A stretch of 64,000 nt of DNA from an uncultured Gammaproteobacteria bacterium (lineage in GTDB: Bacteria; Pseudomonadota; Gammaproteobacteria; Steroidobacterales; Rariloculaceae). Where the stretch lies: contig CAWEOP010000008.1 in the NCBI GenBank assembly GCA_963810755.1, positions 484,003 through 548,002 on the forward strand, given 5' to 3'. The position numbers and the translations under genes were made by a program. The notes under the pieces are model-generated. The model was not told where the DNA came from. It was given only the letters and a program-made list of their open reading frames with translations, and did no database searches. This document shows positions 846 to 28,199 of the stretch, piece after piece (the stretch's first letter is position 1; each line of letters starts with the position of its first letter).

Positions 846-1714
846 TGGATGCGCCGATGAAGGAGTTCGTGATCGACGTCCTGAAGATCGTCGCACCGAT
901 CTCGGTGGCGCTCGTCGTGTTCGCGCAGGCGCTCGGCATCTCGTTGCGCGACGTCGCGAGTTGTTTCAAGGACCGGTTCTGGATGATGTTGCGGTGTCTG
1001 GTCGCTGTGCTCGTGCTGGTTCCAGCCGCCGCGGTGCTGCTGATCAAGATTCTCGCACCCGCGCCGGGCGTCGGTGTCGGATTAGCAATCCTGGCCGCGT
1101 GTCCCCCCGCGCCGCTCATGCTCAAGGCGGCTCCCAAATCCGGCGGAGCCAGCCCGGTGCTCATGGCGAGCTTGCGTCTCACGCTCGCCGCGTTCGCTTT
1201 CCTTACAGTGCCGATCATTCTCGATCTCGTGTCGATACCTCTGGGCTTCCAAGCTGACGTCGGCGTGCCCGGAATGATTTCGATCTTGGCCAAGACCATC
1301 CTGATCCCAATCGCTCTGGGGCTCGCCGTTCGCGCGATGTTTCCGGGTTTTGCCGCCCGGTCCGCCGGCATTCTGGACAAGGTCGGGTCGGTGGGGTTGG
1401 CCCTCGTGTTGCTGTTCGTTCTCGCGGCGTCGTATTCCCCGCTGCTGCAAATGGATGCGTGGTCCTACGCCGTCATCGCGACGCTCGCGGTCGTGGCCTT
1501 GGCCATCGGTCACTCGTTCGGCCCAGCGAATCCCCACGAGAAGACCGCGCTCGCGGTCGAATGTACCGTTCGCCACCCGGCGCTCGCGATTACCATCGCG
1601 GCCGCGAACTTCAGCCCGCAGCAAGCGCTGCCGGTGCTGCTGCCGTGCGTGCTCACGACCATTGTCGTCGCGACGATCTATTTGGCCTGGCGCAGTCGGA
1701 GCCAGCAGGCTTAG
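845..1714 (+). CDS. Polytopic membrane transporter, bile-acid:Na+ symporter (BASS/SBF)-like
   Basis: In-frame ATG at 845 overlaps the corA stop (TAATG). About 290 aa, about 9 hydrophobic helices, Pro/Gly-rich helix breaks. Family assignment is by resemblance only. Confidence 0.5.
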   Translation: MDAPMKEFVIDVLKIVAPISVALVVFAQALGISLRDVASCFKDRFWMMLRCLVAVLVLVPAAAVLLIKILAPAPGVGVGLAILAACPPAPLMLKAAPKSGGASPVLMASLRLTLAAFAFLTVPIILDLVSIPLGFQADVGVPGMISILAKTILIPIALGLAVRAMFPGFAARSAGILDKVGSVGLALVLLFVLAASYSPLLQMDAWSYAVIATLAVVALAIGHSFGPANPHEKTALAVECTVRHPALAITIAAANFSPQQALPVLLPCVLTTIVVATIYLAWRSRSQQA

Positions 1715-3058
1715 AAGCGCGTGGTCGCGACCGCGTAGAAGTAGGTCGGGTCGCCGCCGACCGAGACTCCGGTCTGGTCGGCAAACCGGCCGAAGTTCAG
1801 ATGCGCCATGCCGCCTTCGAGCGTGAGGCGGTCGGGGATCGCGGTCCACGTGACGGATCCTTCGAGCTGCCTCCCGAGCGAGGTCCCTGCGCGACCGGTG
1901 GCGTCGCGGGCGCCGATCCCTACCCAGGCGTCGCGCTCCGCCGCGAGACGAAAGGAGCTGTAGTGCACCATGCTCTGCCAGCGTTTGCCCGGAGTGAACG
2001 TGAGACGCAGCGCTTGCGACTGCAAGTTGCTGCGGTTGAACGGGCCGTAGATGCCCGTGGGGTTGAATTCGAAGCGGCGATCGCCGAACAGTGAGTTGAA
2101 GCGCTCGTTGCCGTCATCGAGCGGGCTGTGGTCGCCGCTCGCGTCGTCGTACTGAAACAGTCAGATTCGGCGCCCAGGCCACGTCGAACTGGTAGCCCAC
2201 CTCGAAGTGCAGCATGTGCGCGCGGTGATCCAAGTCGCGCCGCGGTACGCCCGCGACGATCCCGCCGGCCTCGCCGGTCTGCAGAATCGCTTCCACCTCG
2301 TAGTTCCAGTGCGCGCGCGCGGGCGCGCGGAAGACGCGCGCGCCGACGGACACGATGTCGAACACGGTGGCCGGGTCGTTGGGTGACCCGTGCGCGTCGT
2401 AGTCGAATGCGTAGATCTCCACGACGTCCGAGTGCGGGCCCTTCGGGAACTGGTAGTAACCGCCCCAGAGCGCGCTGTCGCGCAGACCGCGGTCGAGCTC
2501 GAAATCGTCGTCGACTAGGCTCTCGGTGTCGGTCGGGAGGATCCTCATCGGGACCAAGTAGACGACCCGGGCGTTGCGTCCGTCCGCGCCTTTCCACTGC
2601 CAGTCGACGCCTGTGAAGGTGTAGACAGTGTTGCGGAACCGGTTGCGAGAGAGGATGCGGCGCTTGCCAAGATCGAGCGTCAACCGCCCGACGCGCAGCG
2701 TGCTCTCGTTGCCCGACTGCACGGCGTCCTTGAACGTCCATGCGACGTAGGTCTGGATCGGCTCGAGGGTATTGACGAGGAAAGTGCCGACGGAGGAGAG
2801 CTCGTCGTTGAGCTCGCCGCGTGAATCCATGACCTCCGCATACAATTGCAGCTTCTCGAGCTTGTAGTCGAAGAACAAACTCGTTTGCAGCGCGAGCACG
2901 TGATCTTCTCCGCTCAAGCCGCCGCCGAATTGCTCATCGATCGTCTCGAAGCGCGAGCGTTGGACGCCGCTGAACTCGAACCGCTCGCTCTCGGCTCGAG
3001 ACCGTGTCGCGACCAGCAGGGTCGCAAACGCGACGGCCGCGAATAAGGTCCGATACAT
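1711..3058 (-). pseudogene. Alginate-export-type outer-membrane beta-barrel porin, one frameshift near 2155-2170
   Basis: ORF 2114..3091 (signal peptide MYRTLFAAVAFATLLVA, then alternating beta-strand pattern) continues in another frame as ...LFQYDDASGDHSPLDDGNERFNSLFGDRRFEFNPTGIYGPFNRSNLQS... into ORF 1711..2025. That ORF ends in the OMP-typical C-terminal Phe. Confidence 0.7.
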
Positions 3059-3134
3059 CAAGGTGTCGCCTCCAAGATCGACGCGGGACAAAGTGTAGAC
3101 GGATTGCGCGATTTTCGTATGGCATGATGCCGCG

Positions 3135-4973
3135 ATGCAGTTGACCCCGCCCCATTCCGTTTACTCCGGGCCCGCGCCCCAGGACCGCGCGCGGCAGGTG
3201 CTGCGCGAGGTCTTCGGCTACGAGTCGTTCCGCGACCAGCAGCGGGCGATCATCGCTTGCGCCGAGGCCGGCCGGGACACGCTCGTGCTCATGCCGACGG
3301 GCGGCGGCAAGTCGCTTTGCTATCAGATACCCGCGTTGCTGCGCGACGGAGTCGGTATCGTCGTGTCGCCGCTGATCGCGCTGATGGAGGATCAGGTCGG
3401 CGCGTTGCGCGACGCCGGCATCCACGCGGCGTACCTGAACTCCGCGCTCACGCGCGCCGAGCAGCAGCGGGTGATCGCGGATCTCGAGCAGCGGCGCCTG
3501 CAGCTCTTGTACGTCGCGCCCGAGCGGCTCTTGCAGCCGCAGACACAGGAGCTGCTTCGCCGCCAGCGAGTGTCGATCGTGGCAATCGACGAGGCGCACT
3601 GCGTCTCGCAATGGGGCCACGACTTCCGCCAGGACTATCTCGCGCTGAACGAGCTCAGGCGCTGGTTCCCCGGCGTACCCCGGATGGCGCTCACGGCGAC
3701 CGCGACGCCGCCGACGCGCCGCGAGATCATCGAGCGGCTCGAGCTCACGTCGCCGGAAATATTCGTCAGCAGCTTCGACCGGCCGAACATCCGCTATCAC
3801 GTACAAGCCAAGGGCGACGCGCGCCGTCAGCTCGCGCATTTCCTCGGCGCGCATCGCGGTGAGGCGGGCATCGTCTACTGCCTCTCGCGCAAGAAGACGG
3901 AGGCGATCGCCGAGTGGCTCAACGGCGAAGGATTCGACGCGCTGCCGTACCACGCGGGGCTGCCGGCGGAGACTCGAGCGGCGAACCAGCGCCGGTTTCT
4001 CTCCGAGGACGGCGTGATCGTCGTCGCGACGATCGCTTTCGGCATGGGCATCGACAAGCCCGACGTGCGGTTCGTGGCGCATCTCGATCTTCCGAAGAGC
4101 ATCGAGTCGTATTACCAGGAGACGGGGCGAGCGGGGCGCGACGGCGAGCCCGCGGACGCCTGGATGGTCTACGGGCTGCAAGACGTCGTGCAGTTGCGCC
4201 AGCTCGTGGAGCAGTCCGAGGCCGATGAGCAGCACAAGCGCCGCGAGCGCAACAAGCTCGACGCGCTGCTCGGCTGGTGCGAGGCGACGGAGTGCCGCCG
4301 CCGGCCGCTCTTGTCGTACTTCGGCGAAGAGCGCGGCGAGCCGTGCGGCAACTGCGACAACTGCGTCGTGCCGCCGGCGACCTGGGACGGCACCGAAGCC
4401 GCTCGCAAGCTGCTGTCGTGCGTGTATAGAACCGGGCAAACATTCGGCGCGGCGCACGTCGTCGACGTGCTGCTCGGTAACGCAACGGAGAAGGTCACGC
4501 GCAATCGGCACGAGCAGTTGTCGGTGTTCAACATCGGCACGGAGCTCAAGGCGCCGGCTTGGCGCTCGTTGATTCGCCAGGTGATCGTGCAGGGCTTCTT
4601 GCAGGTCGACCACGCGGGCTACGGTGCGCTCAAGCTCACCGAGGCGAGCCGGCCGCTGCTGCGCGGCGAGGGCGTGTTGCGCGTGCGCGAGGACTCGAAG
4701 GAGCCCGCACCGCGCAAGAAGACGCGAGCGCCGGCCGGCGACATCCCGGACCAGGATCGCGATTTGTGGGAAGCGCTGCGTGAGTGCCGACGGCAGCTCG
4801 CGGCCGAGCAGAGCCTCCCTCCCTACGTGATCTTCCACGACGCGACGCTGCGGCAGATGGTGGCCGAGAAGCCGGCGGACCGCGAGGCTCTGCTCAAGAT
4901 CAGCGGCATCGGACAGGCGAAGCTCGAGCGTTACGGCGAGCGTTTCCTGAGCGTGCTGCGCGCGGCCGGGTGA
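3135..4973 (+). CDS. recQ: ATP-dependent DNA helicase RecQ
   Basis: 612 aa. Walker A MPTGGGKS, DEAH box (IDEAHCVSQWGHDFR), Zn-binding Cys cluster (CRRRPLLSYFGE..CGNCDNC), C-terminal HRDC-like region. Confidence 0.95.
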   Translation: MQLTPPHSVYSGPAPQDRARQVLREVFGYESFRDQQRAIIACAEAGRDTLVLMPTGGGKSLCYQIPALLRDGVGIVVSPLIALMEDQVGALRDAGIHAAYLNSALTRAEQQRVIADLEQRRLQLLYVAPERLLQPQTQELLRRQRVSIVAIDEAHCVSQWGHDFRQDYLALNELRRWFPGVPRMALTATATPPTRREIIERLELTSPEIFVSSFDRPNIRYHVQAKGDARRQLAHFLGAHRGEAGIVYCLSRKKTEAIAEWLNGEGFDALPYHAGLPAETRAANQRRFLSEDGVIVVATIAFGMGIDKPDVRFVAHLDLPKSIESYYQETGRAGRDGEPADAWMVYGLQDVVQLRQLVEQSEADEQHKRRERNKLDALLGWCEATECRRRPLLSYFGEERGEPCGNCDNCVVPPATWDGTEAARKLLSCVYRTGQTFGAAHVVDVLLGNATEKVTRNRHEQLSVFNIGTELKAPAWRSLIRQVIVQGFLQVDHAGYGALKLTEASRPLLRGEGVLRVREDSKEPAPRKKTRAPAGDIPDQDRDLWEALRECRRQLAAEQSLPPYVIFHDATLRQMVAEKPADREALLKISGIGQAKLERYGERFLSVLRAAG

Positions 4974-5208
4974 CGCGGTGCTCTTGCAGCGGCCGCGGCC
5001 GCCCGCACGACGCGGCCACCACGGGAGCGCGCCGATCGTGTCCTCGACGGCTCAAGAATGCTCACGGGCGTCGGCGCAGCCGTTGACGCTCGCGCGCGCG
5101 CACCCCTATGCTCCTCGGCCATCGTCGGCAGGGGCAGCGCGCGGACCGACGTTGCCATCACCCTATGCAATGCCCCGCCGGACGGCGCCATCGCCGAGGA
5201 GCTTGTCG

Positions 5209-5955
5209 ATGCACAACCCGAAAATCGTCTCCAAGCTGAGCGGCGCGCTGCTCGGCCTGTGCGTCACCGGTACAGCGCTCGCCGCCGACGCTCCGGACTT
5301 CACCGGTGTGTGGGGAACGTATCGCGAGCCCGGTGCTGCCGCTCCGCGGCGCGGCGCGCCGCAGCCCGCTCTCCCGCTGAAGCCCGAAGCGCAGAAGAAG
5401 GTCGACGCGTACCGCGCGCTCGTCGCGCCGAACCAGGACACGCCCGGCGGTTTCTGTTTGGGCACCGGCATGCCGGGCGACATGCTTGGATCGGGCGGCT
5501 ATCCGATGGAGATCGTCCAGCACAAGGATCTATTGATCATCGTGTTCGAGGCGCACGCGGAGATTCGACGGATCTATCTCGCCGCGCGCGCGAAGGAAGA
5601 GGATCTCTTCCCGGATCGCAACGGCTACTCGATCGGACATTGGGACGGCGACAAGTTGATCGTCGAGACGACTCATCTCAAAGAGGCCGTCGATCAGCAG
5701 CGCTATCCGCACAGCGAGCAGGCGAAGATCGTCGAGGAATACCGTCTCAGCACGAATGACGATGGCAGCAAGGTGCTCACGTCGAACATGACTCTCACGG
5801 ATCCCACTTTCTATACCGAGCCGATCAAGGCCGAGAAGAAGTGGCAGTTCCAGCCCGGAGTACGTTTGTTGCCGTATGAGTGCAACGAGCCTCTGTGGGA
5901 GGAGCATTTGGAGCAGCTGCGCCAGCAGAGCGCGGGGGAAAAGACCGGAGGCTAG
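5209..5955 (+). CDS. Secreted protein, stand-alone copy of the 'G-x-S-I-G-H-W-[DE]-G' domain family
   Basis: ATG at 5209 followed by a signal peptide (LLGLCVTGTALAADA). Shares GYSIGHWDGDKLIVETT and two conserved Cys with the C-terminal halves of 10075..11109, 13881..14885, 16504..17581, 45657..46679 and with 11963..13090. Confidence 0.6.
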   Translation: MHNPKIVSKLSGALLGLCVTGTALAADAPDFTGVWGTYREPGAAAPRRGAPQPALPLKPEAQKKVDAYRALVAPNQDTPGGFCLGTGMPGDMLGSGGYPMEIVQHKDLLIIVFEAHAEIRRIYLAARAKEEDLFPDRNGYSIGHWDGDKLIVETTHLKEAVDQQRYPHSEQAKIVEEYRLSTNDDGSKVLTSNMTLTDPTFYTEPIKAEKKWQFQPGVRLLPYECNEPLWEEHLEQLRQQSAGEKTGG

Positions 5956-6001
5956 CGTGGCGCGCTCGCCTCTTCTGCGGGCCGATCATTCGGAGACCAT
6001 C

Positions 6002-6379
6002 ATGAGCAAGTCGATCATCGCCAAGACGATCATTGGGGCCCTGTCGTCCGTGTTGTGTGCGGCGCCGTTCGCCGCGCAGGCGCATCATTCCGCGGCGCGC
6101 TTCGATCTTGCGATCCGAGACAACTACGTCACCGGCATCGTGAAGGAATTCAAGGCGGCGAACCCGCACACGAAGATCGTGCTCGAAATCACCGACGATA
6201 AGGGCACGCGCGACGTGGAGTTCGAAGGCCACAGTCTCAACAACTACTATCGTGCCGGCTGGCGCGAAGGTCTGATCAAGGTCGGGGACAAGATCACGCT
6301 GCAGTCCGCGCCCACCAAAGACGGTACCGACGGTGGTTATGCGCTCGGCGTGACCGCGGCCGACGGCACGAAGTTCTGA
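6002..6379 (+). CDS. Small secreted DUF6152-like protein (AQA|HHS ... NPH)
   Basis: ATG at 6002, signal peptide ending AAQA, then HHSAARFD and ANPH 27 residues later. 125 aa. Paralog of 25162..25524 and of the N-terminal halves of four fusion genes. Confidence 0.65.
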   Translation: MSKSIIAKTIIGALSSVLCAAPFAAQAHHSAARFDLAIRDNYVTGIVKEFKAANPHTKIVLEITDDKGTRDVEFEGHSLNNYYRAGWREGLIKVGDKITLQSAPTKDGTDGGYALGVTAADGTKF

Positions 6380-6382
6380 GCG

Positions 6383-6754
6383 ATGGATGCTTCCATCAAC
6401 GTGTTCGGGGAGACCCTGCAAGGCTGCAATGACAAGCCGATGGCGGGCTTCTTCCGCGATGGTTGTTGCAACACCAGCGACGACGACTTGGGCTCGCATA
6501 CCGTGTGCGTCGAAGTCACGAAGGACTTCCTCGAATTCTCTCGCTTCCGCGGCAACGATCTGTCGACGCCGCGGCCGGAGTTTTCGTTCGCGGGGCTCAA
6601 GCCCGGCGATCGTTGGTGCCTCTGCGCCGCCCGCTGGCTCGAAGCGCAGCAGCAAGGCATGGCGCCGCGTGTGTTGCTCAAAGGCACGCATTCGCGCGCG
6701 CTCGAGATCGTTCCGCTCGCGCTTCTGAAGAAATTCGCCGTCGATCTGAACTAA
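6383..6754 (+). CDS. DUF2237-family protein
   Basis: 123 aa with the family-typical GFFRDGCCNT..DLGSHTVC...GNDLSTP...GLKPGDRWCLCAARW pattern. Confidence 0.75.
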   Translation: MDASINVFGETLQGCNDKPMAGFFRDGCCNTSDDDLGSHTVCVEVTKDFLEFSRFRGNDLSTPRPEFSFAGLKPGDRWCLCAARWLEAQQQGMAPRVLLKGTHSRALEIVPLALLKKFAVDLN

Positions 6755-6808: not shown

Positions 6809-8771
6809 GTGGGGGAAAAGCTCGTGAGTCTCCAACAGCGAACCTGGTTGTCGCTCGCGGCCGCTGCTTTCGGCGCCGCGCTCAGCTCCACCGCGCTCGG
6901 TCAGAGCACCCCGGCCGCTGCCGCGCCGCAAGGCGCGCTGGTCGAATGGCCCGTCTACGGCGGCAGCTTGTCGTCGCAGTTCTATTCGCCGCTCGACCAG
7001 ATCGACACGCGCAACGTCAAGGACCTCAAAGTCGCGTGGACCTGGTACGCGGGCAACTTCGGTCCGAATCCCGAGATGAAGAGCGAGACGACGCCGCTGA
7101 TGATCGACGGGGTGCTGTACGCGACCGCGGGCGCGACGCGCAACGTCGCGGCAATCGACGCCGCGAGCGGCGAGACGCTCTGGGTGTGGCGGCCGAACGA
7201 GCCCGATCGTTTCAAGCAGGCGCCGCGCAAGATGGCCGGGCGCGGCGTTTCCTATTGGAGCGACGGCAGCGACGACAAGCGCATCTTCGTCGTGACGCCG
7301 GGCTTCTTCCTGTGGTCGCTCGACGCGAGCACCGGGCTGCCGAAGCGCGAGTTCGGCGAGGCCGGCTTCGTGGACTTGCGGCGCGGACTTGCGCGGGCCG
7401 ATGGACAACGTCGAGGCGGGTTCTTCGTCGCCGTCGCTCGTCGTCGGCGACGTCGTGATCGTCGGTCCCGCGGGCGGCATCGGCGCGCGGCCGAACTCGA
7501 AGACGCAGGTGAAGCTCGACGTGCGCGGCTTCGACGTGCACACGGGCGCGCTGCTGTGGACGTTCCACACGATCCCCGAGAAGGGCGAGTTCGGCTACGA
7601 CACGTGGCTCACGCCGGGCTCGGCGGAGTACACGGGCAACGCGGGGGTTTGGGCGCCGATGGCCGCGGATCCGGAGCTCGGCATCGTGTATCTGCCGGTC
7701 GAGGGTCCGACGAGCGATCTCTACGGCGGCGAGCGGCCCGGCAACAACCTGTTCGGCAACACGCTCGTCGCGCTCGACGCGAAGACGGGCCAGCGCGTCT
7801 GGCATCGCCAGCTGATTCATCACGACATCTGGGACTACGACAACCCGACGTCGCCGATCCTGCTCGACGTGACGGTCGGCGGGAAGCGCGTGAAGGCCGT
7901 CGTGCAGCTCACGAAGCAGGCGTTCGCGTACGCGTTCAACCGCGAGACCGGCGAGCCGCTCTGGCCGATCGAGGAGAGATCGGTGCCGACGTCCGACGTG
8001 CCGGGCGAGTGGACCGCGGCGACGCAGCCGTTCCCGACCAAGCCGAAGGCCTACGACCGCCAGGGCGTGACCGAGGCCGACCTCGTCGACTTCACTCCGG
8101 CGATCAAGGCCGCGGCGCTCGCGGCCGTGAAGGACCTGCAGAATGGGGCCGATGTTCACGACGTCGTCGCTGATCGACGCGCCCGACGGCACGCGCGGCG
8201 CGCTCGTGCTGCCGCATTTCGGCGGCGGCTCGAACTGGGAGGGCGGCGCCGCGGATCCCGAGACGGGCATGCTGTACGTCGCGTCGCAGACGACGATGAA
8301 TGTGTTCGCCGTGAACCTCGCGAACGGCCGTTCCGACATTCGTTATCTATTCGTGAACGGCGACGCGCCGCACCCGCTCGGCCTGCCGCTGATCAAGCCG
8401 CCGTACGGTCGAATCACGGCAATCGACATGAACACCGGCGAGCACCGCTGGATGGTGCCGAACGGCGACACGCCGGACGACATCAAGAACAATGCCGCGC
8501 TGCGCGGCGTGAAACTTGCCGCCGACCGGCAAGCCGAGCAAGGCGCTGTTGCTCGTGACGAAGACGCTGCTGTTCGCGGCTGAGGGCTACGGCGGCGGGC
8601 CGATCCTGCGCGCATACGACAAAGCGAGCGGCAAGGTGGTCGCCGAGCTGCCGCTGCCGTCGACCGCGAGCGGCAAGCCGATGACTTACATGCTCAACGG
8701 GAAGCAGTACATCGTGCTCGCGGTCGGCAAAGAGCACGCCTGCACAGCTCGTCGCGCTCGCGTTGAACTGA
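6809..8771 (+). pseudogene. PQQ-dependent dehydrogenase (glucose/quinate/alcohol dehydrogenase superfamily), about four frameshifts
   Basis: One continuous homologous protein can be read only by switching frames near 7390, 8145, 8514 and 8728. The path is ORFs 6809.., 7389.., 8143.., 8516.., then [14 protein letters not shown] ending at 8771. Propeller motifs are present (YSPLDQI, TPLMIDGVLY, WDYD, GGSNWEGGAADPETGMLYV, ITAIDMNTGEHRW). Confidence 0.8.
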
Positions 8772-10074: not shown

Positions 10075-11109
10075 TCATTGCTGGTAGCCCGGTTTGCACG
10101 CGTACGGCTCCGGATCGCGCGGGCTGCGCACGAATCGTTCCGTCTGCGTCACGGGCTCCTTGAAATACGCAGGGTCGTCGATCGTCCACGTGATCTCGAG
10201 ATCGCCCGTCGCGGGATTCACCGCGAGCGTCTCCGCGAGCTTCAAATTCTCGGTGTGTAGCACGCCGAAGCGCGGCTCGAGCGTCGCCGCGACGAAGTGG
10301 TCGGTGGCTGCGACGAGCGTCTTGCCGTCGAAATGCCCGAGCGAATAACCCATCGTGCTGCGCGCGACCTCAGCGGCCGGCGAACGCCCGTCGAGATGAA
10401 CGACGCGCCGGCTGTCCATGAAGCGGTGGTCGACGACGACGGTATCGCCCTCGAGCTTGATCTCGAACGGCTCGTTGACGTTCACCCAGAAGCGCACGGG
10501 GCTCGCGGGATCGCAGTAGATCGCCGGGTCGTCCTTGATCGGATCGAACGCGGCGCGCGCCTTCTCGCCGGCGGCCGTGAGCTGGCCTTCGTAAGTCGAC
10601 ACGGTGAAGCGCTTCATCGTCCACACGCCGACGATCGACGTCGGGTCGGGGGGCGCTTCTGCCGCCGGAGCCACGGTCGGCGCGAACAACGCGGTGCTTT
10701 GCAGCACGTGGCCGTCGGCGAAGTGAGCAACGCGGAATGCGCAGCCCGTCGGATTGTGGCGCGCCGCGACGCCTTCGATCGTGATCGGCTCGCCGGGCTT
10801 GAACGACTCGGTCGTGAGACCGTTGCGCGACAACACCGACCGCGACGCCATCTCGCAGCTCCAGATCTGCTTCGTGCCCGCCGCGTCGCTGGTCTCGATG
10901 TAGATGAACGAGTGCGGGTTGATGAACTCGAACCGCGAGACGACGCCCTTGATCGTCACGGGCTTGGTCACGTCGTAATGCGGCGCGACGCCGTGGTGGG
11001 CGAGGCCGGGCGCGGCAAGAACGAGCGCCGCGAGGCCCGCGATGTAGCTGCTCCGTCTCACAGCGCTTCCCCCTCCGGCGCGCCGTCGATGCAGGCTAGT
11101 ATGAACCAC
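10075..11109 (-). CDS. Secreted DUF6152-like / 'GHW[DE]G'-domain fusion protein
   Basis: 344 aa. Signal peptide ..APGLA|HHGVAPHYD, INPH, then C-terminal half with GYSLGHFDGKTLVAATDHF and the conserved Cys pair (IYCDP.., PYACKP). Confidence 0.7.
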   Translation of the reverse strand: MVHTSLHRRRAGGGSAVRRSSYIAGLAALVLAAPGLAHHGVAPHYDVTKPVTIKGVVSRFEFINPHSFIYIETSDAAGTKQIWSCEMASRSVLSRNGLTTESFKPGEPITIEGVAARHNPTGCAFRVAHFADGHVLQSTALFAPTVAPAAEAPPDPTSIVGVWTMKRFTVSTYEGQLTAAGEKARAAFDPIKDDPAIYCDPASPVRFWVNVNEPFEIKLEGDTVVVDHRFMDSRRVVHLDGRSPAAEVARSTMGYSLGHFDGKTLVAATDHFVAATLEPRFGVLHTENLKLAETLAVNPATGDLEITWTIDDPAYFKEPVTQTERFVRSPRDPEPYACKPGYQQ

Positions 11110-11962: not shown

Positions 11963-13090
11963 ATGATCGCCAGCAAGCTTCTGGTCCCGGGGCTCCTCGT
12001 CGCGGGTCTCGCAGCGACTGCGGCGCACGCACAGGGGATCGGCGATGGTCCGGGAGCGCCGCCGTCGAAGGAACGTTCCGTGCCCGCCGAGACGACGGCC
12101 GCGGCGTTCAAGAACCCGAAGTGGCGCGCGCCGCGCACGTCCTGGGGCGATCCGAGCCTCGAGGGGCAGTGGAGCGTCGACGACATGCGCGGCATCCCGC
12201 GCGATCGGCCCGAGGCGATGGGGACGCGCGAGTCGCTCGACGCCGATGAATTCCTGAAGCGCGCGAGCCAGCAGCAGGGGGGCTCCGACCGGTCGAAGCA
12301 AGAGGAGACCTTCTTGCGCAACGAGTGGGGCACCCGCACGTTCGGCTACTCGTCGCTCGTCGTCGATCCGCCGAACGGCCGCGTACCCGCGCTCACGGAC
12401 GCCGGCAAAGCGCGCGCGGAGGCGACCGCTCGAGTCGGCACGTTCGGTCCGGGCCCGTTCGACAAGTTCGAAGACTTCTCGCTGTACGATCGCTGCATCA
12501 CGCGCGGTATCTTCGGCTCGGTGCTGCCATCGATCTACGGCAACGGCATCCGGATCGCGCAGAGCCCGACGGAAGTGTCGGTGACGTACGAAATGATCCA
12601 CGACACGCGAATCATCCCGCTCGAGAATCGTCCGCATATCGACGGTTCCGTCCAGCAGTACATGGGCAACGCTCGCGGTCACTGGGAGGGGGACACGCTC
12701 GTCGTCGAGAGCACGAACTTCACGGACAAGACGGGTGCCGGCGCTCGCGGCCCGACGAGCACGGAGCTCAAGGTGACCGAACGATATCGGCGCGTCGATC
12801 CCAAGATGATCGAGTACCGGGCGACGATCGAGGATCCCGCGACGTTCACGGCGCCCTTCACCTACCGGGTGATGATTACGTCACAGCCGAACTACGAGGT
12901 CTACGAATACTCTTGTCACGAGGGCAACGGCGCCGTGGGTCACGCGCTGAGTGGCGAGCGCGCGTTCGAGCGCCAGGTGGAAGAGGCGAAAGCGAAGGGT
13001 CTGCCGGTTCCGAAGCGCGCGGATGGTCTGACGATCTATCGCGCGCCGGCGGAAGGCTCGGAAGTGTTCAACATCAACTCCGGCGAGTAA
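11963..13090 (+). CDS. Secreted protein, larger stand-alone member of the 'GHW[DE]G' domain family
   Basis: 375 aa, signal peptide ..AATAAHAQG, motifs LYDRCITRG, GNARGHWEGDTLVVESTNF, YEYSCHEGN. Confidence 0.65.
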   Translation: MIASKLLVPGLLVAGLAATAAHAQGIGDGPGAPPSKERSVPAETTAAAFKNPKWRAPRTSWGDPSLEGQWSVDDMRGIPRDRPEAMGTRESLDADEFLKRASQQQGGSDRSKQEETFLRNEWGTRTFGYSSLVVDPPNGRVPALTDAGKARAEATARVGTFGPGPFDKFEDFSLYDRCITRGIFGSVLPSIYGNGIRIAQSPTEVSVTYEMIHDTRIIPLENRPHIDGSVQQYMGNARGHWEGDTLVVESTNFTDKTGAGARGPTSTELKVTERYRRVDPKMIEYRATIEDPATFTAPFTYRVMITSQPNYEVYEYSCHEGNGAVGHALSGERAFERQVEEAKAKGLPVPKRADGLTIYRAPAEGSEVFNINSGE

Positions 13091-13140: not shown

Positions 13141-13443
13141 ATGACGACGCTGATATACGTCCTGCTCGCGGTGGCGCTCGTCGTGTTCGTGATGGTCATG
13201 GTGCGCGCCGCGGGCTCGCGGCGGCGCACGCGCAAGCTGCGCAGCGCTCAATCCGCGGGCACCGACGACTCTCCGACGGGTTACGTGCAGGGGGTCTGGC
13301 TGCTCGGCGGCGCCGATTCGGCAACCCCGCACGGGCAACACCATCGACCGGGCCATCACGGCTCGGGGCATCATGGCTCCGGCCATGACGGCGCGGCGCA
13401 TGGCGGCGGAGATGCGAGTGACGGCGGCGGCGGATCGGACTGA
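13141..13443 (+). CDS. Small single-TM protein with His/Gly-rich C-terminal tail
   Basis: ATG at 13141, TM helix LIYVLLAVALVVFVMVMV, tail HGQHHRPGHHGSGHHGSGHDGAAHGGGDASDGGGGSD. Confidence 0.45.
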   Translation: MTTLIYVLLAVALVVFVMVMVRAAGSRRRTRKLRSAQSAGTDDSPTGYVQGVWLLGGADSATPHGQHHRPGHHGSGHHGSGHDGAAHGGGDASDGGGGSD

Positions 13444-13880: not shown

Positions 13881-14885
13881 GTGAACGCACGAAGTTGGAC
13901 CGTTTCGCTACTGCTGGCCGCGGCGCCGGCAGCCGCGCATCACAGCGCGGCGCTGTTCGACACGACCAAGCAGGTCACTCTCGACGGCGTGATCACGAAG
14001 TACGACTGGCGTAATCCGCACGTCTACATGGCGATCCGGATGACGGGCGCCGACGGCGGCGTCGTCGACCAGGAGATCGAGGCGGGCGCGAGCTCCGTGC
14101 TGCTGCCCCTCGGGCTCACGCCCGATGCCGTCGCGATCGGCGAACGCGTGACCGTGCGCGGGAACCCGTCGCGCAGCGGCGCGGGCCACATGGTGCTCGG
14201 CCGCGAGCTCGTAAAAGCCGACGGCTCGGTGCTGCCGCTCAACATCAACTCGGCCGCGAGCCGCGTAGCGCCGCAGAACGTGACCGCGACATCGATCGCG
14301 GGCACCTGGTTTCCGCCGCGCGAGAATTTCTATGCGTTCCTCGGCACGCGGCGCGACTGGTCGCTCACGGACCTCGGCGAGAAGGCCTCCGCCGCATTCA
14401 GCAATCGCGAGACTGCGCAGCAGGACTGCATCCCGGTGACTGCACCCACGCTGATGCTCTATCCCGTCACGAGCGTGATCGAGGTGGCAGCCGACGTCGT
14501 GAAGATGCACGTCGACTGGATGGCGTCCGAGCGCGTCGTCTATATGGATGGCCGCAACCACCCGGCGAACGCCTCGCCGACGCTCCACGGTCACTCGATC
14601 GGTCACTGGGAAGGGGAGACGCTGCTCGTCGAAACCACCCAGTTCGCTCCTCACAAGGAAGGTAATGCGATGGGTATGCCGTCGGGCGCGCGTAAGCACC
14701 TCGTCGAGCGTTTCTCGGTGAGCGACGACCGCAAGCATCTGCAATACGACGTCGTGCTGGAGGATCCAGATTATCTCGCGGCGCCGGTGACGTATTCGTC
14801 ACAGTGGAACTATCGGCCCGACCTCGTGCCGACAGGTCTCAAGTGCGACCTCGACGTCGCGCGCCGCTTCCTCACGCAAGACTAA
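13881..14885 (+). CDS. Secreted DUF6152-like / 'GHW[DE]G'-domain fusion protein
   Basis: GTG start. ..AAPAAA|HHSAALFD, RNPH, GHSIGHWEGETLLVETTQF, conserved Cys (QQDCIP, GLKCDLD). Confidence 0.7.
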   Translation: MNARSWTVSLLLAAAPAAAHHSAALFDTTKQVTLDGVITKYDWRNPHVYMAIRMTGADGGVVDQEIEAGASSVLLPLGLTPDAVAIGERVTVRGNPSRSGAGHMVLGRELVKADGSVLPLNINSAASRVAPQNVTATSIAGTWFPPRENFYAFLGTRRDWSLTDLGEKASAAFSNRETAQQDCIPVTAPTLMLYPVTSVIEVAADVVKMHVDWMASERVVYMDGRNHPANASPTLHGHSIGHWEGETLLVETTQFAPHKEGNAMGMPSGARKHLVERFSVSDDRKHLQYDVVLEDPDYLAAPVTYSSQWNYRPDLVPTGLKCDLDVARRFLTQD

Positions 14886-16503: not shown

Positions 16504-17581
16504 ATGCGCTTCGGAAACGCCGCCGCTCACAGCGCGCTCGGCGTGCCCGCACTGATCTTCGGTGTCGTTCTGCTCGCGCCGAACGCTCGCGCGCATCACA
16601 GCGTCGCCGCGTGGTTCGACACGACGGTCACGCTCACGGAGCTCGAAGGCGAGGTCACGCAGATGCGCTGGCAAAACCCGCACGTGGTTTTCACGATGCG
16701 CGTAGCGAGCGAGGGTGGCGAAGCTCAGCTGTGGGATATCGAGACCTTGTCGATCAGCGGCATCCAGCGCTGGGGTATCTCCGAAGACCTGTTCGGTGTC
16801 GGCGACCGGTTGCAAGGTCGCGGGTAATCCGTCGCGCCGCAACTCGAACAACTTGTTCGTGCGCAACATTCTGCTGCCGAGCGGGCGCGAGATCGTGCTC
16901 GGCGGCTCCGCGCGCTGGTCCGAGCAGACGCTGCGTGGCTCGGAGGTGCTGCAGGCACAGGAGGGTGATTCGTCGCGGCCGGAGCTCGGTCTCTTCCGCA
17001 CCTGGAGCAGCGGCTCGGGCGGCGGGTTCTTATTCCCCGAGGCGCTCGACCCGAAATTCGATTTCGGGCGCTACCCGCTGACCGTAGCCGCCAAGGCTGC
17101 GCTCGCGGCGTTCGATTTCGCGGCCGACGATCCGACCAACGACTGCTCGCCGAAAGGCATGCCGACGATCATGGAGCAACCGTACCCGCTCGAGTTTGCA
17201 GACCTGGGTGCACGCATCGAGATCCGGATGGAGGAGTACGACACGCAGCGCTCGATCCACATGGGTGCCGCGGGCGCCGCGGGAGAAGCGGCCGCCGCGC
17301 CGTCGCTCAACGGTTATTCGGTCGGACGCTGGGACGGCCGCACGCTCGTCGTGACGACGACGAAGTCGAGCTGGGGGCATTTCGACAGCGTCGGAATCCC
17401 ACTCAGCGAGGCGGCGGTGATCGTCGAGCGTTTCACGCCGTCGGACGACGGCGCGCGGCTCGGCTATTCGCTGACCGTGACGGATGCCGCGACGTTCACG
17501 GCCCCAGTCGAGATGAAGAAGTTCTGGATCTGGCGCCCGGAGATCGAGGTCGAGCGCTATTCCTGCGTCCCGGTCGGCTAG
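16504..17581 (+). pseudogene. Secreted DUF6152-like / 'GHW[DE]G'-domain fusion protein, one frameshift near 16808-16816
   Basis: ORF 16321..16827 gives ..NARA|HHSVAAWFD..QNPH..GVGDRLQ, then hits a stop. ORF 16715..17581 continues VAGNPSRR... to GYSVGRWDGRTLVVTTT and YSCVP. Confidence 0.65.
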
Positions 17582-19970: not shown

Positions 19971-20858
19971 ATGAGCATTCTCGACCCGGCGGTGCCGGAG
20001 GGCATTACCCGCGTCCGCGTGCCGGCCGCCGCCCGTTGCGCCACTCGTGTCGGATGTGCGGCAGCGGCGCTCGCCGCCGCCGGCGCGGCGCAGGCCCACT
20101 TCCAATTGCTCTACACGCCTGAAACGGCGCTCTCGGGTGCGCAGGCGCTGCATTTCGTGATGGTGTTCTCCCACCCGGCGCATGGCGGTCCGTCGATGCA
20201 GATGGGCGCGCCGGAGGCGTTCTTCGTCGTGAGCCAGCGCGGCGACGACAGCGAGCCCGTGAAGACCGACCTCAAGGGATCGTTGCTGCCGATCGAGTGG
20301 CAGAGCAAGGACGGTCCCGTCCATGCCTACGAAGCGAGCCTGCCGCGCAACGCGACTCGCTCCCTCGGCGACTACGTGTTCGTGTTCCAGCCGGCGCCGT
20401 ACCTCGAAAAGCAGGAAGACAAGTTCATTCAGCAGTTCACCAAGACCGTGGTGAACGTGGGGGGCGTGCCCGGTAACTGGGCCGAGCCCGTCGGACTGCC
20501 GACCGAGATCGTGCCGCTCGACAAGCCGTACGCGAACTGGACGGGCGGCGTGTTCCGCGGCGTCGTGTTTTCGGACGGCAAGCCCGTACCGAATGCCGAG
20601 CTCGAGGTCGAGTACGTGAACTATCCGCTCGACATCGACGTGCACCGCTTCGCGGCGGAAGCGCAGGTAGCGTTTCCGCAGGGCTCGTTCGGAACCATGG
20701 GCATCCACGCGAACGATCGCGGCGAGTTCACGGTCGGGCTCGCGCGCGCGGGCTGGTGGGGCGTATGCGCCCTCAACGTCGGTCCGAAGAAAGAGCACGA
20801 GGGCAAGCCGCTGTCGCAAGACGCGGTGATCTGGGTTCAAGTTCGGGACATGAAGTAG
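19971..20858 (+). CDS. DUF4198-domain periplasmic protein (NikM/CbiM-associated type)
   Basis: 295 aa, signal peptide ..AAGAAQA|HFQLLY. The mature N-terminal HF.L start and Ig-like middle (GGVFRGVVFSDGKPVPNAELEVEY) are typical of DUF4198. Confidence 0.7.
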   Translation: MSILDPAVPEGITRVRVPAAARCATRVGCAAAALAAAGAAQAHFQLLYTPETALSGAQALHFVMVFSHPAHGGPSMQMGAPEAFFVVSQRGDDSEPVKTDLKGSLLPIEWQSKDGPVHAYEASLPRNATRSLGDYVFVFQPAPYLEKQEDKFIQQFTKTVVNVGGVPGNWAEPVGLPTEIVPLDKPYANWTGGVFRGVVFSDGKPVPNAELEVEYVNYPLDIDVHRFAAEAQVAFPQGSFGTMGIHANDRGEFTVGLARAGWWGVCALNVGPKKEHEGKPLSQDAVIWVQVRDMK

Positions 20859-20863
20859 CCGTC

Positions 20864-21538
20864 ATGGCCGCAACCGCCGCCGCAACCAAACTGACGATCG
20901 TGCCGCCGCGCAGCGGCAAGCTCGAAGCGGCGCTCGTGGCGCTCACGGTCGTCGTGATCCTCGCCGTCGGCGGTGCGTTGATCAAGGCGACGCAGGTCGA
21001 CAACTTCGAGCCGCGGCTGTTCGGCTGGCAGATCAGCTCGTTCTACGATCTGAATCCCACCGATCAAGCCATCTACAACGCGCTCGTCACCGCGAGCGAC
21101 GAGCTCTGGTGGATCTGGGGCGGCCGCATCGAGTTTCCCGCGCCGGGCGAGGAGGACGAGCCTTGGCCGACCGTCGAGTCGCTCGACACGCAGTACAACC
21201 TGCCGCCGTTCGTGAAGGACGTGCAGTGGGAGCAGACCGGGAGGGTCAAATGGCAGCGGATCCAGGCGTTCGCGAACACGGGTAACCAGGACGGCAATTC
21301 TTCTTATTTTGGCAACGGCGGCACGGTGCCGGGCCAGGCAGGCGCCTACTTGCTCGTGCTAACGCACGTGCATAAAGGCGCGAGCTACGCCGACGGCGCG
21401 CAGATGTGGGTGCACAAGGATCCGAACGCGCCGATCCCGAAGCTCACGAAGACGGATTCCCTGATCGCCAACGGCTGGAAGGAAGTCATCCCGTACAACG
21501 GGGCCGTGGAACTGGAGCGCCTCAAAGGTAGCAAGTGA
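20864..21538 (+). CDS. Membrane-anchored hypothetical protein in the metal-uptake locus
   Basis: ATG at 20864. One N-terminal TM helix (LVALTVVVILAVGGALI), then a soluble Trp-rich domain. No family recognised. Confidence 0.5.
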   Translation: MAATAAATKLTIVPPRSGKLEAALVALTVVVILAVGGALIKATQVDNFEPRLFGWQISSFYDLNPTDQAIYNALVTASDELWWIWGGRIEFPAPGEEDEPWPTVESLDTQYNLPPFVKDVQWEQTGRVKWQRIQAFANTGNQDGNSSYFGNGGTVPGQAGAYLLVLTHVHKGASYADGAQMWVHKDPNAPIPKLTKTDSLIANGWKEVIPYNGAVELERLKGSK

Positions 21539-21539
21539 A

Positions 21540-22466
21540 ATGCGCAGCTTCTTACGAGTAGTTCGTGCCGCTTTGATCCTCGCGCTGTCCGCGCACGCGG
21601 TGTCCGCTTCGGCAGCGCAGGGCGGCCGGCTGAAGATCGGCATCACGCTGCACCCTTACTACAGCTTCGTCGCCAACATCGTGGGCGACAAGGCCGACGT
21701 CGTGGGGCTCATCGACTCGCACGCCAACCCGCACAACTACACGCCGCAGCCCGACGACATGAAGCGCGTGATGACGATGGACGTGCTCGTCGTGAACGGT
21801 ATCGGCCACGACGAGTGGGCGTTCGATATCGTCAAGGCGGCCGGCCGCGAGAAGAATCTGAAGCTCATCTACGCGAACGCGGAGGTGGCGCTGATCCCGA
21901 TCGCCGCCGACGGCGGCCAGGCGAAGGTCGTGAACCCGCATACGTTCGTGTCGACCACCGCGGCGATCCAGCAGATCTTCACGATCGCGAAGGAGCTCGG
22001 CGAGATCGACAAGCCTAACGCCAAGTTCTACCGCGACAACGCTCGCGCCTACGCGCAGCGCATCCGCACGATGAAGACGCAGTTCAGCGCACAGCTCGCC
22101 GACGTCGACGTCGCGAGCTTCCGCTGCGCGACCATGCACGCGGGCTACGGGTATCTCATGCAGGAGTTCGGGCTGCAGGTGGCCGCCGTCATCGAGCCGC
22201 GCCACGGCGTGGAGCCCACCGCGCGCCAGCTCGCGGAGACGATCGACCGGATCAAGGCCGCCAACGTCCAGGTGCTGTTCGCCGAGAAGTACTTCGCGAG
22301 CAAGCTCGCCGATACGATCAAGGACGCCACCGGCGTGCAGATGTATTCCTTCTCGCACATGTCCGACGGCGATTACTCGCCCGATCTCTACGAGCGCGAA
22401 ATGCGTCTGAATCTCGAGACGCTCGTCCAGGCAATGCACGACGTCGCACAGAAGAAGGCCAACTGA
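21540..22466 (+). CDS. Metal (Zn/Mn-type) ABC transporter substrate-binding protein, cluster A-I (ZnuA/TroA-like)
   Basis: 308 aa, signal peptide. Canonical ligand positions are present (TLHPYY, NPHNY, NPHTF, C-terminal acidic/His FSHMSD). Confidence 0.85.
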   Translation: MRSFLRVVRAALILALSAHAVSASAAQGGRLKIGITLHPYYSFVANIVGDKADVVGLIDSHANPHNYTPQPDDMKRVMTMDVLVVNGIGHDEWAFDIVKAAGREKNLKLIYANAEVALIPIAADGGQAKVVNPHTFVSTTAAIQQIFTIAKELGEIDKPNAKFYRDNARAYAQRIRTMKTQFSAQLADVDVASFRCATMHAGYGYLMQEFGLQVAAVIEPRHGVEPTARQLAETIDRIKAANVQVLFAEKYFASKLADTIKDATGVQMYSFSHMSDGDYSPDLYEREMRLNLETLVQAMHDVAQKKAN

Positions 22467-22474
22467 AGCCCCTC

Positions 22475-23221
22475 ATGCGCGGTCCTTCGATTCGGTTCGA
22501 CCACGTCGACCTCGCGCTCGGCGGCGCGCAAATCTTGCGCGACGTGAACTTCTCGATCGCCGCGGGCGAGATCCATTGCCTGATCGGCCCGAACGGCGGC
22601 GGCAAGACGTCGTTGATCCGCAGCCTGCTCGGACAGATGCCGCATACCGGGACGATCGCGGTGGACTGGGGCGAAACTCGAACGATCGGCTACGTGCCGC
22701 AAGCGCTCGATTTCGACAAGACGCTGCCGGTCACCGTCGACGACTTCATGGCCATGGTGTGCCAGAAGCGGCGTCCGGCGTTCATCGGGCTCAGCAAAGC
22801 GAACCGGCCGCGGGCCGAGGCGGCGCTCGAGCGCGTGGGCCTGGTCGGCAAGAACAAACGCAAGCTCGGCAGCTTGTCGGGCGGCGAACGCCAGCGCGTT
22901 CTATTCGCGCAGGCGTTGATCCCGGAGCCCGCGATGCTCGTGCTCGACGAGCCGATGACGAGCATGGATGAGGTCGGCGCGGAGCGCTTCGTGCAGGTGA
23001 TCCAAGATCTCTCGGCCGCCGGTGTCACCGTGATCTGGATCGCGCACGATCTCGCGCAAGTGCGTGCGCTTGCGCGCAACGTCACGTGCATCAACCGCAC
23101 AGTGCTGTTCACGGGCCCACCGAGCGAGGTGCTAGCGAACTTCGACGCGGAAGTGCTGTTCACGCAAGTGCTGCAGGTGGCGGCCGAGCCCATGAGCGCG
23201 GCCAAGGTGGGTGCGGCATGA
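22475..23221 (+). CDS. Metal ABC transporter ATP-binding protein (ZnuC-like)
   Basis: Walker A GPNGGGKTS, signature LSGGERQR, Walker B LLVLDEP. Confidence 0.85.
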   Translation: MRGPSIRFDHVDLALGGAQILRDVNFSIAAGEIHCLIGPNGGGKTSLIRSLLGQMPHTGTIAVDWGETRTIGYVPQALDFDKTLPVTVDDFMAMVCQKRRPAFIGLSKANRPRAEAALERVGLVGKNKRKLGSLSGGERQRVLFAQALIPEPAMLVLDEPMTSMDEVGAERFVQVIQDLSAAGVTVIWIAHDLAQVRALARNVTCINRTVLFTGPPSEVLANFDAEVLFTQVLQVAAEPMSAAKVGAA

Positions 23222-24123
23222 GCGAGCTGTACATGTGGATCCGCGATTACCTCATGGCACTCGCGTTCGACGGCAAGCTGCCGCTGTCGTTCCAGTATGG
23301 CTTCGTCATCAACGCGCTGTTGTGCGCGTTGTTCATCGGCCCGGTGCTCGGCGGCGTCGGAACGATGGTCGTCACGAAGCGGATGGCGTTCTTCTCCCAG
23401 GCGATCGGCAATGCGGCGATGACGGGTGTTGCGATCGGCGTGCTGTTAGGGGAGTCGTACACCGAGCCGTACGTGTCGATGTTCGGTTTCTGCGTGCTGT
23501 TCGGCCTCGTGCTGCAGTTCACCAAGGGGCGCACGCAGATCTCGTCCGACACGCTGATCGGCGTGTTCCTATCGATCTCACTCGCAGTCGGCGCTTCGCT
23601 GCTGTTGTTCGTTTCCGCGCGAGTCAACACGCACATCCTCGAGGCCGTGCTGTTCGGCTCGGTGCTCACCGTGAGCGACACGGACATGAACGTGCTGCTG
23701 GTCACGACCGCGGCCGTGATCGCCGTGGCGATCCCGCTGTTCAATCCGCTCGTGCTCGCGAGCTTCAACCCGAACCTCGCGAAGGTTCGGGGCGTGAAGG
23801 TGCAGCTCGTCGAGTACGTCTTCGTGCTGATGATCACGCTGCTCACCGTCGCGTGCCTCAAGATCGTGGGCGCGGTGCTCGTAGAGGCGCTGCTGCTGAT
23901 CCCGGCTGCGGCCGCGAGGAATCTCATCCGCTCGATGCGCGGGTTCGTGTTCCTCAGCATGATCATCTCCACGATCAGCTGCATCGCGGGCGTGATGATC
24001 CCGATGCAGTTCGATCTGCCCGTTCCTTCGGGCGGCGCAATCATCATGGTGGCTACTGCGATCTTCGTTCTGACGATGATCGTTCGAATCACTGTCTCGC
24101 GATTCCGCGAAGCGGAGGTGTGA
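23218..24123 (+). CDS. Metal ABC transporter permease (ZnuB-like)
   Basis: ATG at 23218 overlaps the ATPase stop (ATGA). About 300 aa, 8-9 TM helices, typical ..FFSQAIGNAAMTGVAIG.. region. Confidence 0.85.
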   Translation: MSELYMWIRDYLMALAFDGKLPLSFQYGFVINALLCALFIGPVLGGVGTMVVTKRMAFFSQAIGNAAMTGVAIGVLLGESYTEPYVSMFGFCVLFGLVLQFTKGRTQISSDTLIGVFLSISLAVGASLLLFVSARVNTHILEAVLFGSVLTVSDTDMNVLLVTTAAVIAVAIPLFNPLVLASFNPNLAKVRGVKVQLVEYVFVLMITLLTVACLKIVGAVLVEALLLIPAAAARNLIRSMRGFVFLSMIISTISCIAGVMIPMQFDLPVPSGGAIIMVATAIFVLTMIVRITVSRFREAEV

Positions 24124-24126
24124 GTC

Positions 24127-25104
24127 ATGTCGTACGCTAAACGTCTGGGTCTGCTCGGCACCTTGAGTCTCGCCATCGCCGCGGGCGGAGCATCCGCCGA
24201 CGAGCCCGCGGGCAACGTGACGGTGCTCACGGCGCTGCCGGTGACATACTCGATCGCGTCCGCGCTCGCGGCCGGCACGCATGTGACCGTGCAGAACGTG
24301 CCGGAGAACGGCCGGCGCATGAATGCGCAGCAGAATTACTTCACGCTCCAGGCGCCGAAGCTCGCCGATCAGTTCGCCCACGCCTCGGCCGTGATCACGA
24401 TCGGTAAGCTTTGGCAGGACGATCCGCTGTTCGTCGCGGCGCGCGCGGCGAACATCCGCGTGATCGACATCGATGCAACCAAGCCCTATTCGGATACGCT
24501 CGAAGGCGTGTCCGTCGCGTTCGAGCCCGAGACCGATGCGCCATGGACGGAGCACGAGGGCGAATCCGCGCCGGTACCGTCGCTGTACTTCTGGCTCAGC
24601 GCTTCGAACGTTGCGCGCGCCTCCGACATCGTGGGACAGGACTTGATGCGCCTCGCGCCGGCGGATGCGCCTAGGATCGCCGCGAATCTCGCGAAGTTCG
24701 AGCGCGAAGTGCTCGACATCAAGCGTGAATATGAAGCGAAGCTAGCCGCGCTGCCCGATGTCACCGTTTACGGGCTCGGCCCCGGACTCGTTTATCTGCT
24801 CACGGACATGAGCATTTTCGTCGATGGCTACTTCCTGAAGCAGGACATCAACTGGACGCCGGAAGACGTCTCGAGTTTTTCGAAATATTTGAAGGACCAC
24901 GGCATCAAGGTAGTCGTGCACCAGTGGGACCCGTCGGAGGCGATCAAGGGTGCGATCACATCGGCCGGAGCGAAGCTCGTCGTGCTCGACCTCGGTGACG
25001 GTGGGATCGTAGAGGACGGTCATCTCGTGCCCGACGGCTACACGCGGTTGCTGCGCTCGAACCTCGACGCTTTGTACCAGGCCTTGCACGCGGCGAATGG
25101 CTGA
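24127..25104 (+). CDS. Second ZnuA/TroA-like periplasmic protein with all metal-ligand positions substituted
   Basis: 325 aa, signal peptide. Same fold-level pattern as 21540..22466, but LHPYY is replaced by LPVTY, NPHNY by NAQQNY and NPHTF by SLYFW. Confidence 0.6.
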   Translation: MSYAKRLGLLGTLSLAIAAGGASADEPAGNVTVLTALPVTYSIASALAAGTHVTVQNVPENGRRMNAQQNYFTLQAPKLADQFAHASAVITIGKLWQDDPLFVAARAANIRVIDIDATKPYSDTLEGVSVAFEPETDAPWTEHEGESAPVPSLYFWLSASNVARASDIVGQDLMRLAPADAPRIAANLAKFEREVLDIKREYEAKLAALPDVTVYGLGPGLVYLLTDMSIFVDGYFLKQDINWTPEDVSSFSKYLKDHGIKVVVHQWDPSEAIKGAITSAGAKLVVLDLGDGGIVEDGHLVPDGYTRLLRSNLDALYQALHAANG

Positions 25105-25161
25105 GCGCGTCTAGGGAACCCCGGACGCATCATCGAAGCGCGTGGACGCCGCGCATCGAAC

Positions 25162-28173: not shown

Positions 28174-28199
28174 AGCACCTTCTTAAGGAGGAGAGGGCG

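Follow-up and report, generated by a model that had tools for sequence, protein, structure and literature searches.

Do the two small exported proteins encoded side by side at 5209..6379 of this stretch of DNA work as one? The stretch, hereafter the window, comprises 64,000 nucleotides of contig CAWEOP010000008.1 from an uncultured gammaproteobacterium (assembly GCA_963810755.1), and the question arises because the same two modules are joined in single genes elsewhere in it. We call the DUF6152 module D and its partner of about 200 amino acids C; gene A (5209..5955) encodes a stand-alone C and gene B (6002..6379) a stand-alone D. Our answer, to which we give a probability of about 0.72, is that A and B form, as its two halves, one extracytoplasmic unit that is also made as a single chain, and that this unit would act by the mechanism set out below.

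Both genes lie on the forward strand. Gene A runs from an ATG at 5209 to a TAG at 5953-5955 (248 amino acids), and gene B from an ATG at 6002 to a TGA at 6377-6379 (125 amino acids; Pfam PF19649). The spacer of 46 nt (5956..6001, same strand) contains a GGAGA ribosome-binding site at 5992-5996, 6 nt before the ATG of B. The original prediction described two separate neighbours, C first and D second, 46 nt apart and each with its own signal peptide; coordinates and spacing proved exact, and Sec-type signals could be read by eye in both sequences. The signal of A reads MHNPKIVSKLSGALLGLCVTGTALA, followed by AD (...GTALA/ADAPDF), and that of B MSKSIIAKTIIGALSSVLCAAPFAAQA, followed by HH (...FAAQA/HHSAARF). 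Besides its signal peptide, A has a G-x-W start, the pair Cys83/Cys225 and the stretch GYSIGHWDGDKLIVETT; the predicted mature B starts with His-His-Ser, and an NPH motif follows 28 residues further on.

A DUF2237 gene (6383..6754, forward strand; Pfam E 1e-52) starts 3 nt past the stop codon of B, and a sigma-70-like promoter match, TTGACG-18-TATGCT, which is a consensus match only, lies at 5083..5112 on the same strand within the 235-nt gap between recQ and A. No terminator-like site was seen between A, B and DUF2237, and the three genes are therefore likely to form one transcript. More than 1,100 close homologues of A are about 245 amino acids long and 71-94% identical to it, and the orthologous loci keep A and B adjacent in the order recQ, A, DUF6152, HpcH/HpaI aldolase, DUF2237 and, further on, a pyrroloquinoline quinone (PQQ) dehydrogenase. 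The aldolase gene stands directly 3' of DUF6152 in loci L001, L002 and L004-L006, with DUF2237 next in L002 and L004-L006; the window has no HpcH/HpaI aldolase gene at A/B.

The fused forms are four genes: 10075..11109 (reverse strand, 344 amino acids) and 13881..14885 (forward, 334 amino acids; the copy modelled below), both intact; 16504..17581 (forward), with one +1 frameshift near 16815 and an intact ortholog in L007; and 45657..46678 (forward), with two +1 frameshifts (~45690 and ~46590) and a stop codon at 46676-46678. All four carry D and C, as had been predicted, although two are frameshifted and the last ends at 46678 and not at 46679. Their N-terminal parts match DUF6152 with E-values from 1e-14 to 8e-24 (54.5-84 bits), and B does so with 2e-19 (69.8 bits), against a gathering cut-off of 27 bits.

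The C halves of the fusions are related to 5209..5955, as the original prediction required. BLASTP aligned A with the C halves of 10075 (6e-13) and 13881 (6e-16), TBLASTN with 17132..17566 (2e-16) and with the 45657 gene (8e-07), and custom C-domain hidden Markov models (HMMs) matched all six C copies of the window at E 1e-65 to 1e-122. We define the C family by profiles A2 and A5, matched over about 200 amino acids. Its hallmarks are G-x-W, a Cys pair, an Arg, the motif G-x-S-x-G-x-W-x-G-x-x-L-x-V-x-T and V-E-R; the G-x-W start, the Arg, a Glu, the core of the motif as far as the Leu and the Cys pair (C83 and C225 of A) are invariant, the last as had been predicted. Apart from this disulfide pair, no metal-type residue is invariant in C. 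The longer motif first read from the window, G-[HY]-S-[IL]-G-[HR]-[WF]-[DE]-G-x-T-L-[IV]-V, holds roughly: A has K for T, 16504 has S-V and 10075 ends in V-A.

DUF6152 is the only Pfam family above its curated cut-off on these proteins. Neither gene A nor the C module matched any Pfam or NCBIfam family, two sets of 24 and 10 C-module proteins gave no match to Pfam at E<=1, lipocalin and FABP models included, and a sequence profile search of the PDB with the C module found nothing. The Pfam models of CusF, ZinT/YodA and BOF (YgiW) did not match either, and other matches were weak and below cut-off. Some DUF6152 proteins of 126-144 amino acids bear the JGI names 'phenylpropionate dioxygenase-like ring-hydroxylating dioxygenase large subunit' or 'endonuclease YhcR' (P0275, P0285, P0294, P0384); such names were probably transferred wrongly on the strength of partial matches.

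When the six C modules of the window were combined into a profile, it retrieved 15,432 representative clusters (50% identity) with E<=1e-3, of which 9,100 reached E<=1e-10. Among the best 150 clusters, classified with our own HMMs, 79 were D-C, 51 C only, 20 C-C and none C-D, proportions that are biased towards fusions because four-sixths of the profile came from fused copies; several of the C-only clusters are truncated fusions. Every fusion seen has D first, and in the fused copies a linker replaces the signal peptide ahead of the C half. The 20 C-C tandem proteins hint at contact between C modules. Arrays of C with no DUF6152 within 10 kb were seen in L070 (7 copies), L009 (4) and L039 (3).

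The two modules also keep company in other genomes. Species-representative genomes scanned with a stand-alone-C profile yielded 80 loci (45 Acidobacteriota, 32 Pseudomonadota, one Actinomycetota, one Gemmatimonadota and one unassigned), 76 of which have a stand-alone focal C. A D-only gene lies on the same strand just upstream (D>C) of 31 of these and just downstream (C>D) of nine, so that 40 of the 76 have an adjacent same-strand D, about 20-fold over background; in five, D is adjacent on the other strand. We counted 50 D modules at most 700 bp from the focal C; at the density of D found in the other 1.1 Mb of these loci, 2.5 would be expected. The flanks contain 26 D genes, 19 of which adjoin another C gene. 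The downstream C genes of the D>C pairs have their own start codons and signal peptides, which marks them as genuinely split pairs rather than fusions that have been broken.

A complementary survey centred on D used metagenome contigs and one D subfamily (alignment A7). It found 37 D>C, 13 C>D and seven C>D>C loci, eight loci without a same-strand neighbour, seven of which have a divergent C within ~400 nt, and 15 more at contig edges, which are uninformative. Of the 65 stand-alone D genes that are informative, 64 therefore have C as a neighbour, and the predicted co-occurrence of the modules is borne out from both sides. The partnership is asymmetric: D almost never occurs without C and C often occurs without D, which makes D the seemingly dependent one of the two.

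D>C is the commoner operon order. The reversed order noted at A/B is real but nothing special, as C>D accounts for about a quarter of split pairs and forms half of a recurrent D-C-C-D cassette. This cassette was observed in L011, L021, L076, L087, L091-L093, L096-L098, L102, L106, L112 and L120, and in the D tree as in the C tree its two halves belong to separate clades.

Partners also co-diverge beyond shared species history. In 69 adjacent pairs the D-D and C-C distances are correlated with a Pearson r of 0.59, compared with 0.00 (sd 0.035) after random re-pairing. Swapping partners within loci, which holds species history constant, gave a mean r of 0.42 and a maximum of 0.56 over 1,000 trials, and the observed value was never reached. 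The D and C trees mirror each other, with clades shared pair by pair.

The same trees speak to the history of the fused form. In a 225-row FastTree of C, 82 of 83 fused copies fall in one set; in a 66-row IQ-TREE the fused copies are on one side of a branch with an SH-aLRT support of 97, and the D tree is compatible with a single fusion origin. In these trees the fused C domains form essentially one ancient clade. The four fused copies of the window belong to three deep subclades, and each is nearer to proteins of other organisms than to the others, which marks them as old paralogues. The clade of A comprises five C>D orthologues and the D-less relatives L008 and L009, and a branch with support 95 separates it from the fused clade next to it; we treat this placement as tentative, given a rapid tree search and no fixed root. 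Along the tree there are 16-28 changes between the labels D>C, C>D and solo. The original prediction took fusion and fission within one genome as evidence that the modules work together. Their working together outside the cytoplasm is supported by the homology of C, the co-occurrence and the mirrored partner trees; fission is not, since the fused copies form one old clade and those of the window are deep paralogues, which gives no sign of a recent split in this genome.

The fused chain is predicted to fold as one body. An AlphaFold2 model of the 13881 protein, built on a 75-sequence alignment, is a single compact unit with a predicted local distance difference test score (pLDDT) of 93.5 and a predicted template modelling score (pTM) of 0.89; the alignment was needed, as a single-sequence run reached a pLDDT of 33. 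In the model, D is an N-terminal OB-fold packed on the barrel of C, which is FABP/calycin-like with 10 strands (residues 198-311, helices before), a helical lid and one disulfide. These scores suggest that the orientation of D relative to C is predicted confidently in the fused chain. Foldseek searches of the PDB matched the N-domain to OB-folds (the LysRS N-domain, SSB, RPA/CST) and the C-domain to CRABP2, SAHS, UnaG and FABP-like barrels with TM-scores of 0.50-0.58 and probabilities of 0.99-1.0 at a weak E of ~4e-3. Viral structures gave generic OB-fold matches only.

A TBLASTN and HMM sweep found exactly six D and six C modules in the window: the four fused genes, two lone C (at 5209 and 11963) and two lone D (at 6002 and 25162). 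The second lone C (11963..13090, forward strand, 375 amino acids; E 2e-14 to A) has a long N-terminal insert and is a member of a subfamily in which D is never a neighbour. Fifty nt past it lies a possible 100-aa gene (13141..13443, forward; GC content at third codon positions 0.80), the product of which has one transmembrane helix and then a His/Gly-rich tail (HGQHHRPGHHGSGHHGSGHDGAAHGGGD). The fused 45657 gene is flanked by a cytochrome c gene and a beta-lactamase-family gene.

The second lone D (25162..25524, forward; E 6e-26 with our D HMM, precomputed Pfam assignment PF19649) has orthologues in L167, L169 and L170 with a C gene immediately upstream, separated from D by 11 nt or overlapping it by 4 nt. 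The window lacks the ~1 kb holding that C gene, between a znuA-like gene and the lone D (25105..25524). By comparison with these loci, the D at 25162 is an orphan left by a deletion. It follows a metal-uptake cluster (19971..25104) of co-directional, tightly packed genes for DUF4198, a 260-aa open reading frame (DUF6162 in L169), ZnuA, an ABC ATPase, an ABC-3 permease and a second ZnuA-like protein; the same cluster occurs in L169 and is absent from L167 and L170. We considered the position of this D after the DUF4198/znuACB-like cluster as a clue to metal and dropped it: the orthologues have the intervening C gene and the cluster is present in one of three loci. Downstream of the lone D, 25698..29540 encodes a DUF1592-family protein (PSD3/4/5, PSCyt3, cytochrome-c-like) and a DUF1552 (HXXSHH) protein, a pair that also follows the C>D pair in two of the three orthologous loci (L167, L169).

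At least eight frameshifts were found in the window, three of them within two of the four fused genes; others are in a PQQ dehydrogenase gene (6809..8710, three) and in a gene for an alginate-export-like porin (1711..3160, one). All are +1, and this single direction suggests that they are probably sequencing or assembly errors (systematic assembly insertions) rather than decay. A search of public sequencing runs for reads of this strain found none, the best share being 0.14 and from relatives only.

What the unit does can be approached from the conserved residues and from the neighbouring genes. His-His directly follows the predicted A-x-A cleavage site in 161 of 164 and in 109 of 109 D modules of two sets, NPH is retained in 159 of 164 and 108 of 109, and a Glu and a Gly-Trp are near-invariant. 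An invariant His-His end that processing would expose favours a metal site, and from these residues we lean, with somewhat better than even confidence, towards a site formed by the His-His end, the invariant His of NPH and the near-invariant Glu. Within 6 kb of the C genes in the 80 loci, recurrent neighbours encode NHL/SGL propellers (13), PQQ dehydrogenases (11), TonB-dependent (8) and OMP_b-brl_4 (5) receptors, metallo-beta-lactamase (MBL) hydrolases (7), major facilitator superfamily (MFS) transporters (7), DUF6644 (6) and tannase-type esterases (4), a context that favours the periplasmic handling of imported organic compounds.

The mechanism that we propose combines these observations. 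A and B would be co-transcribed with DUF2237, each would be exported by its own Sec signal, and the two would associate in the periplasm with the geometry of the fused chain. Cleavage of the signal peptide would leave D with a free His-His end, which together with the His of NPH and the Glu would form a metal site; a small molecule in the pocket of C would be the target of this site, or else would gate it or be what gates access to it. The paralogues would differ in ligand and serve the periplasmic processing or capture of imported organic compounds, as could be expected from the many paralogues and from neighbours that include TonB receptors, PQQ, propeller, MBL and esterase proteins and c-type cytochromes. 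A metal site combined with a pocket fits the fact that all fusions seen are D-first and the asymmetric partnership described above.

Several points weigh against this interpretation. For 31 of the 76 stand-alone C genes, neither strand carries a D within 700 bp, and arrays of C alone exist (L070, L009), which means that C does not always need D in cis. The survey centred on D sampled a single D subfamily. The D-first order of the fusions rests on about 1-3 independent fusion events and is statistically weak. The structural model is least confident at the His-His tip (pLDDT ~59 for residues 11-20). The znu-type cluster beside the lone D, the one metal-flavoured neighbourhood of the window, is lineage-specific. 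Finally, literature searches for DUF6152, for PF19649 and for a histidine brace with an OB-fold returned no paper.

A bolder version of the proposed mechanism is speculative, and we hold it to be rather unlikely as it stands. It describes a new two-part periplasmic metalloprotein with a histidine-brace-like His-His centre on an OB-fold, which transforms (for example, oxidises) small hydrophobic or aromatic molecules in an FABP-like pocket, the paralogues being a substrate-diversified enzyme toolkit for TonB-imported compounds in soil oligotrophs. In that version D would require a free N-terminus, which would account for fusions always beginning with D although the operon order is free.

Two alternatives keep the unit and change its function; we consider both unlikely, and neither is ahead of the other. 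In the first, the system would serve metal trafficking only: D would capture or buffer periplasmic Cu, Zn or Ni at His-His and hand it on, with C as a docking or regulatory partner without a ligand. The invariant His-His, NPH and Glu of D agree with this, as do the published precedents with a first-residue His (DUF4198, DUF6702 and the anglerases, PMC12537917; Zcp, PMC12663993), and one lone D does sit after the DUF4198/znuACB-like cluster. That adjacency, however, is not conserved, being absent in L167 and L170, and relatives have a C gene in between. Moreover, six D and six C in 64 kb and the large paralogue sets elsewhere are hard to square with metal homeostasis alone, the recurrent neighbours are catabolic and uptake genes rather than metal-resistance genes, and C has, in the model, a conserved ligand-type barrel.

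In the second, the unit would be metal-free, with C as a periplasmic carrier of hydrophobic or aromatic compounds imported through TonB systems and D as an OB-fold lid or adaptor, the His-His being structural or pH-sensing. The FABP-like fold, the invariant Arg and Glu in the barrel region, the G-x-W start, the TonB-dependent or OMP_b-brl_4 receptors near ~13 of the 80 loci, the MFS transporters near seven, and the frequent occurrence of C without D are what a carrier would lead one to expect. On the other hand, the near-absolute His-His at the predicted cleavage site, with NPH and Glu, has the look of a metal site and goes beyond the needs of a lid, and D is almost never found without C.

That the modules are independent genes, brought together by co-inheritance in expanding arrays and sharing no function, is very improbable. 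Tandem arrays and many multi-copy loci do inflate chance adjacency, but the excess of D near C is measured against the density in the same loci, the partner-specific co-divergence survives swaps within loci, the fused form is maintained in 79 of the 150 best representative clusters, and the two-domain model is confident and compact. The idea that the fused genes are assembly or annotation artefacts, such as read-through of adjacent genes, could draw on the frameshifts of the window, but it is already refuted by the 79 fused representatives in other data sets. Two of the fused genes of the window are also intact, a linker stands in place of a signal peptide before the fused C half, and the errors split genes rather than joining them.

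In summary, fusion, a conserved operon and partner co-divergence together permit a firm, testable statement, namely that the two proteins form one unit. The D/C family is real, very large and unstudied, and its function is what we infer from the above: C occurs in more than 15,000 representative clusters (50% identity) without a Pfam or NCBIfam family, its partner is a bare DUF, and one genome region can carry six copies of each module. Together, D and C rank with the larger systems of exported proteins in Acidobacteriota and soil Proteobacteria that await study. If a metal site does work with a pocket, the system would add a new scaffold to the few N-terminal-histidine metal sites and could partly account for the handling of imported organic compounds by soil oligotrophs.

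How does such a unit compare with known systems? The Pfam entry PF19649 covers just the ~100-aa domain and gives no function, and it does not include the C partner, the fusion or the operon. C shares with the FABP/iLBP proteins a 10-stranded antiparallel barrel with a helical lid, a predicted resemblance at the level of the fold only; identity to FABP, CRABP, UnaG and SAHS proteins is 11-14%. A G-x-W near the N-terminus is a hallmark of calycins, and C has one. Unlike FABPs and calycins, C is about 200 amino acids long, has a four-helix N-terminal segment and a conserved disulfide, and is exported, bacterial and paired with D. ZinT/YodA, a His-rich calycin-like zinc protein, likewise joins a His-rich N-terminus to a calycin-like barrel. 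CusF, a chaperone of Cu(I), is an example of an OB-fold with a metal site in the periplasm; its ligands are two Met, a His and a Trp, and these residues are not conserved in D. We know of no OB-fold that serves as scaffold for a histidine-brace-like centre. Among the proteins with such centres, CopC and YcnI work with the genetically linked partners CopD and YcnJ.

Close parallels to D are exported proteins with a metal-binding first-residue His, which include DUF4198, DUF6702 and the anglerases (PMC12537917), the zinc-buffering DUF4198 protein Zcp (PMC12663993), and the histidine-brace proteins CopC, YcnI and the lytic polysaccharide monooxygenases (PMC10952591); DUF6152 is not mentioned in the first two of these papers. 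D resembles DUF4198 proteins (IsDUF4198, Zcp), DUF6702, the anglerases and the histidine-brace proteins in having a His at the predicted end of the signal peptide and a further conserved His downstream, and in its predicted periplasmic location. It has no sequence relation to them, it presents two consecutive His instead of one, and its metal binding is a prediction. Whereas the histidine-brace copper proteins have an immunoglobulin- or cupredoxin-like beta-sandwich, D is an OB barrel by Foldseek, and the partner of D is a soluble calycin-like barrel rather than a membrane permease.

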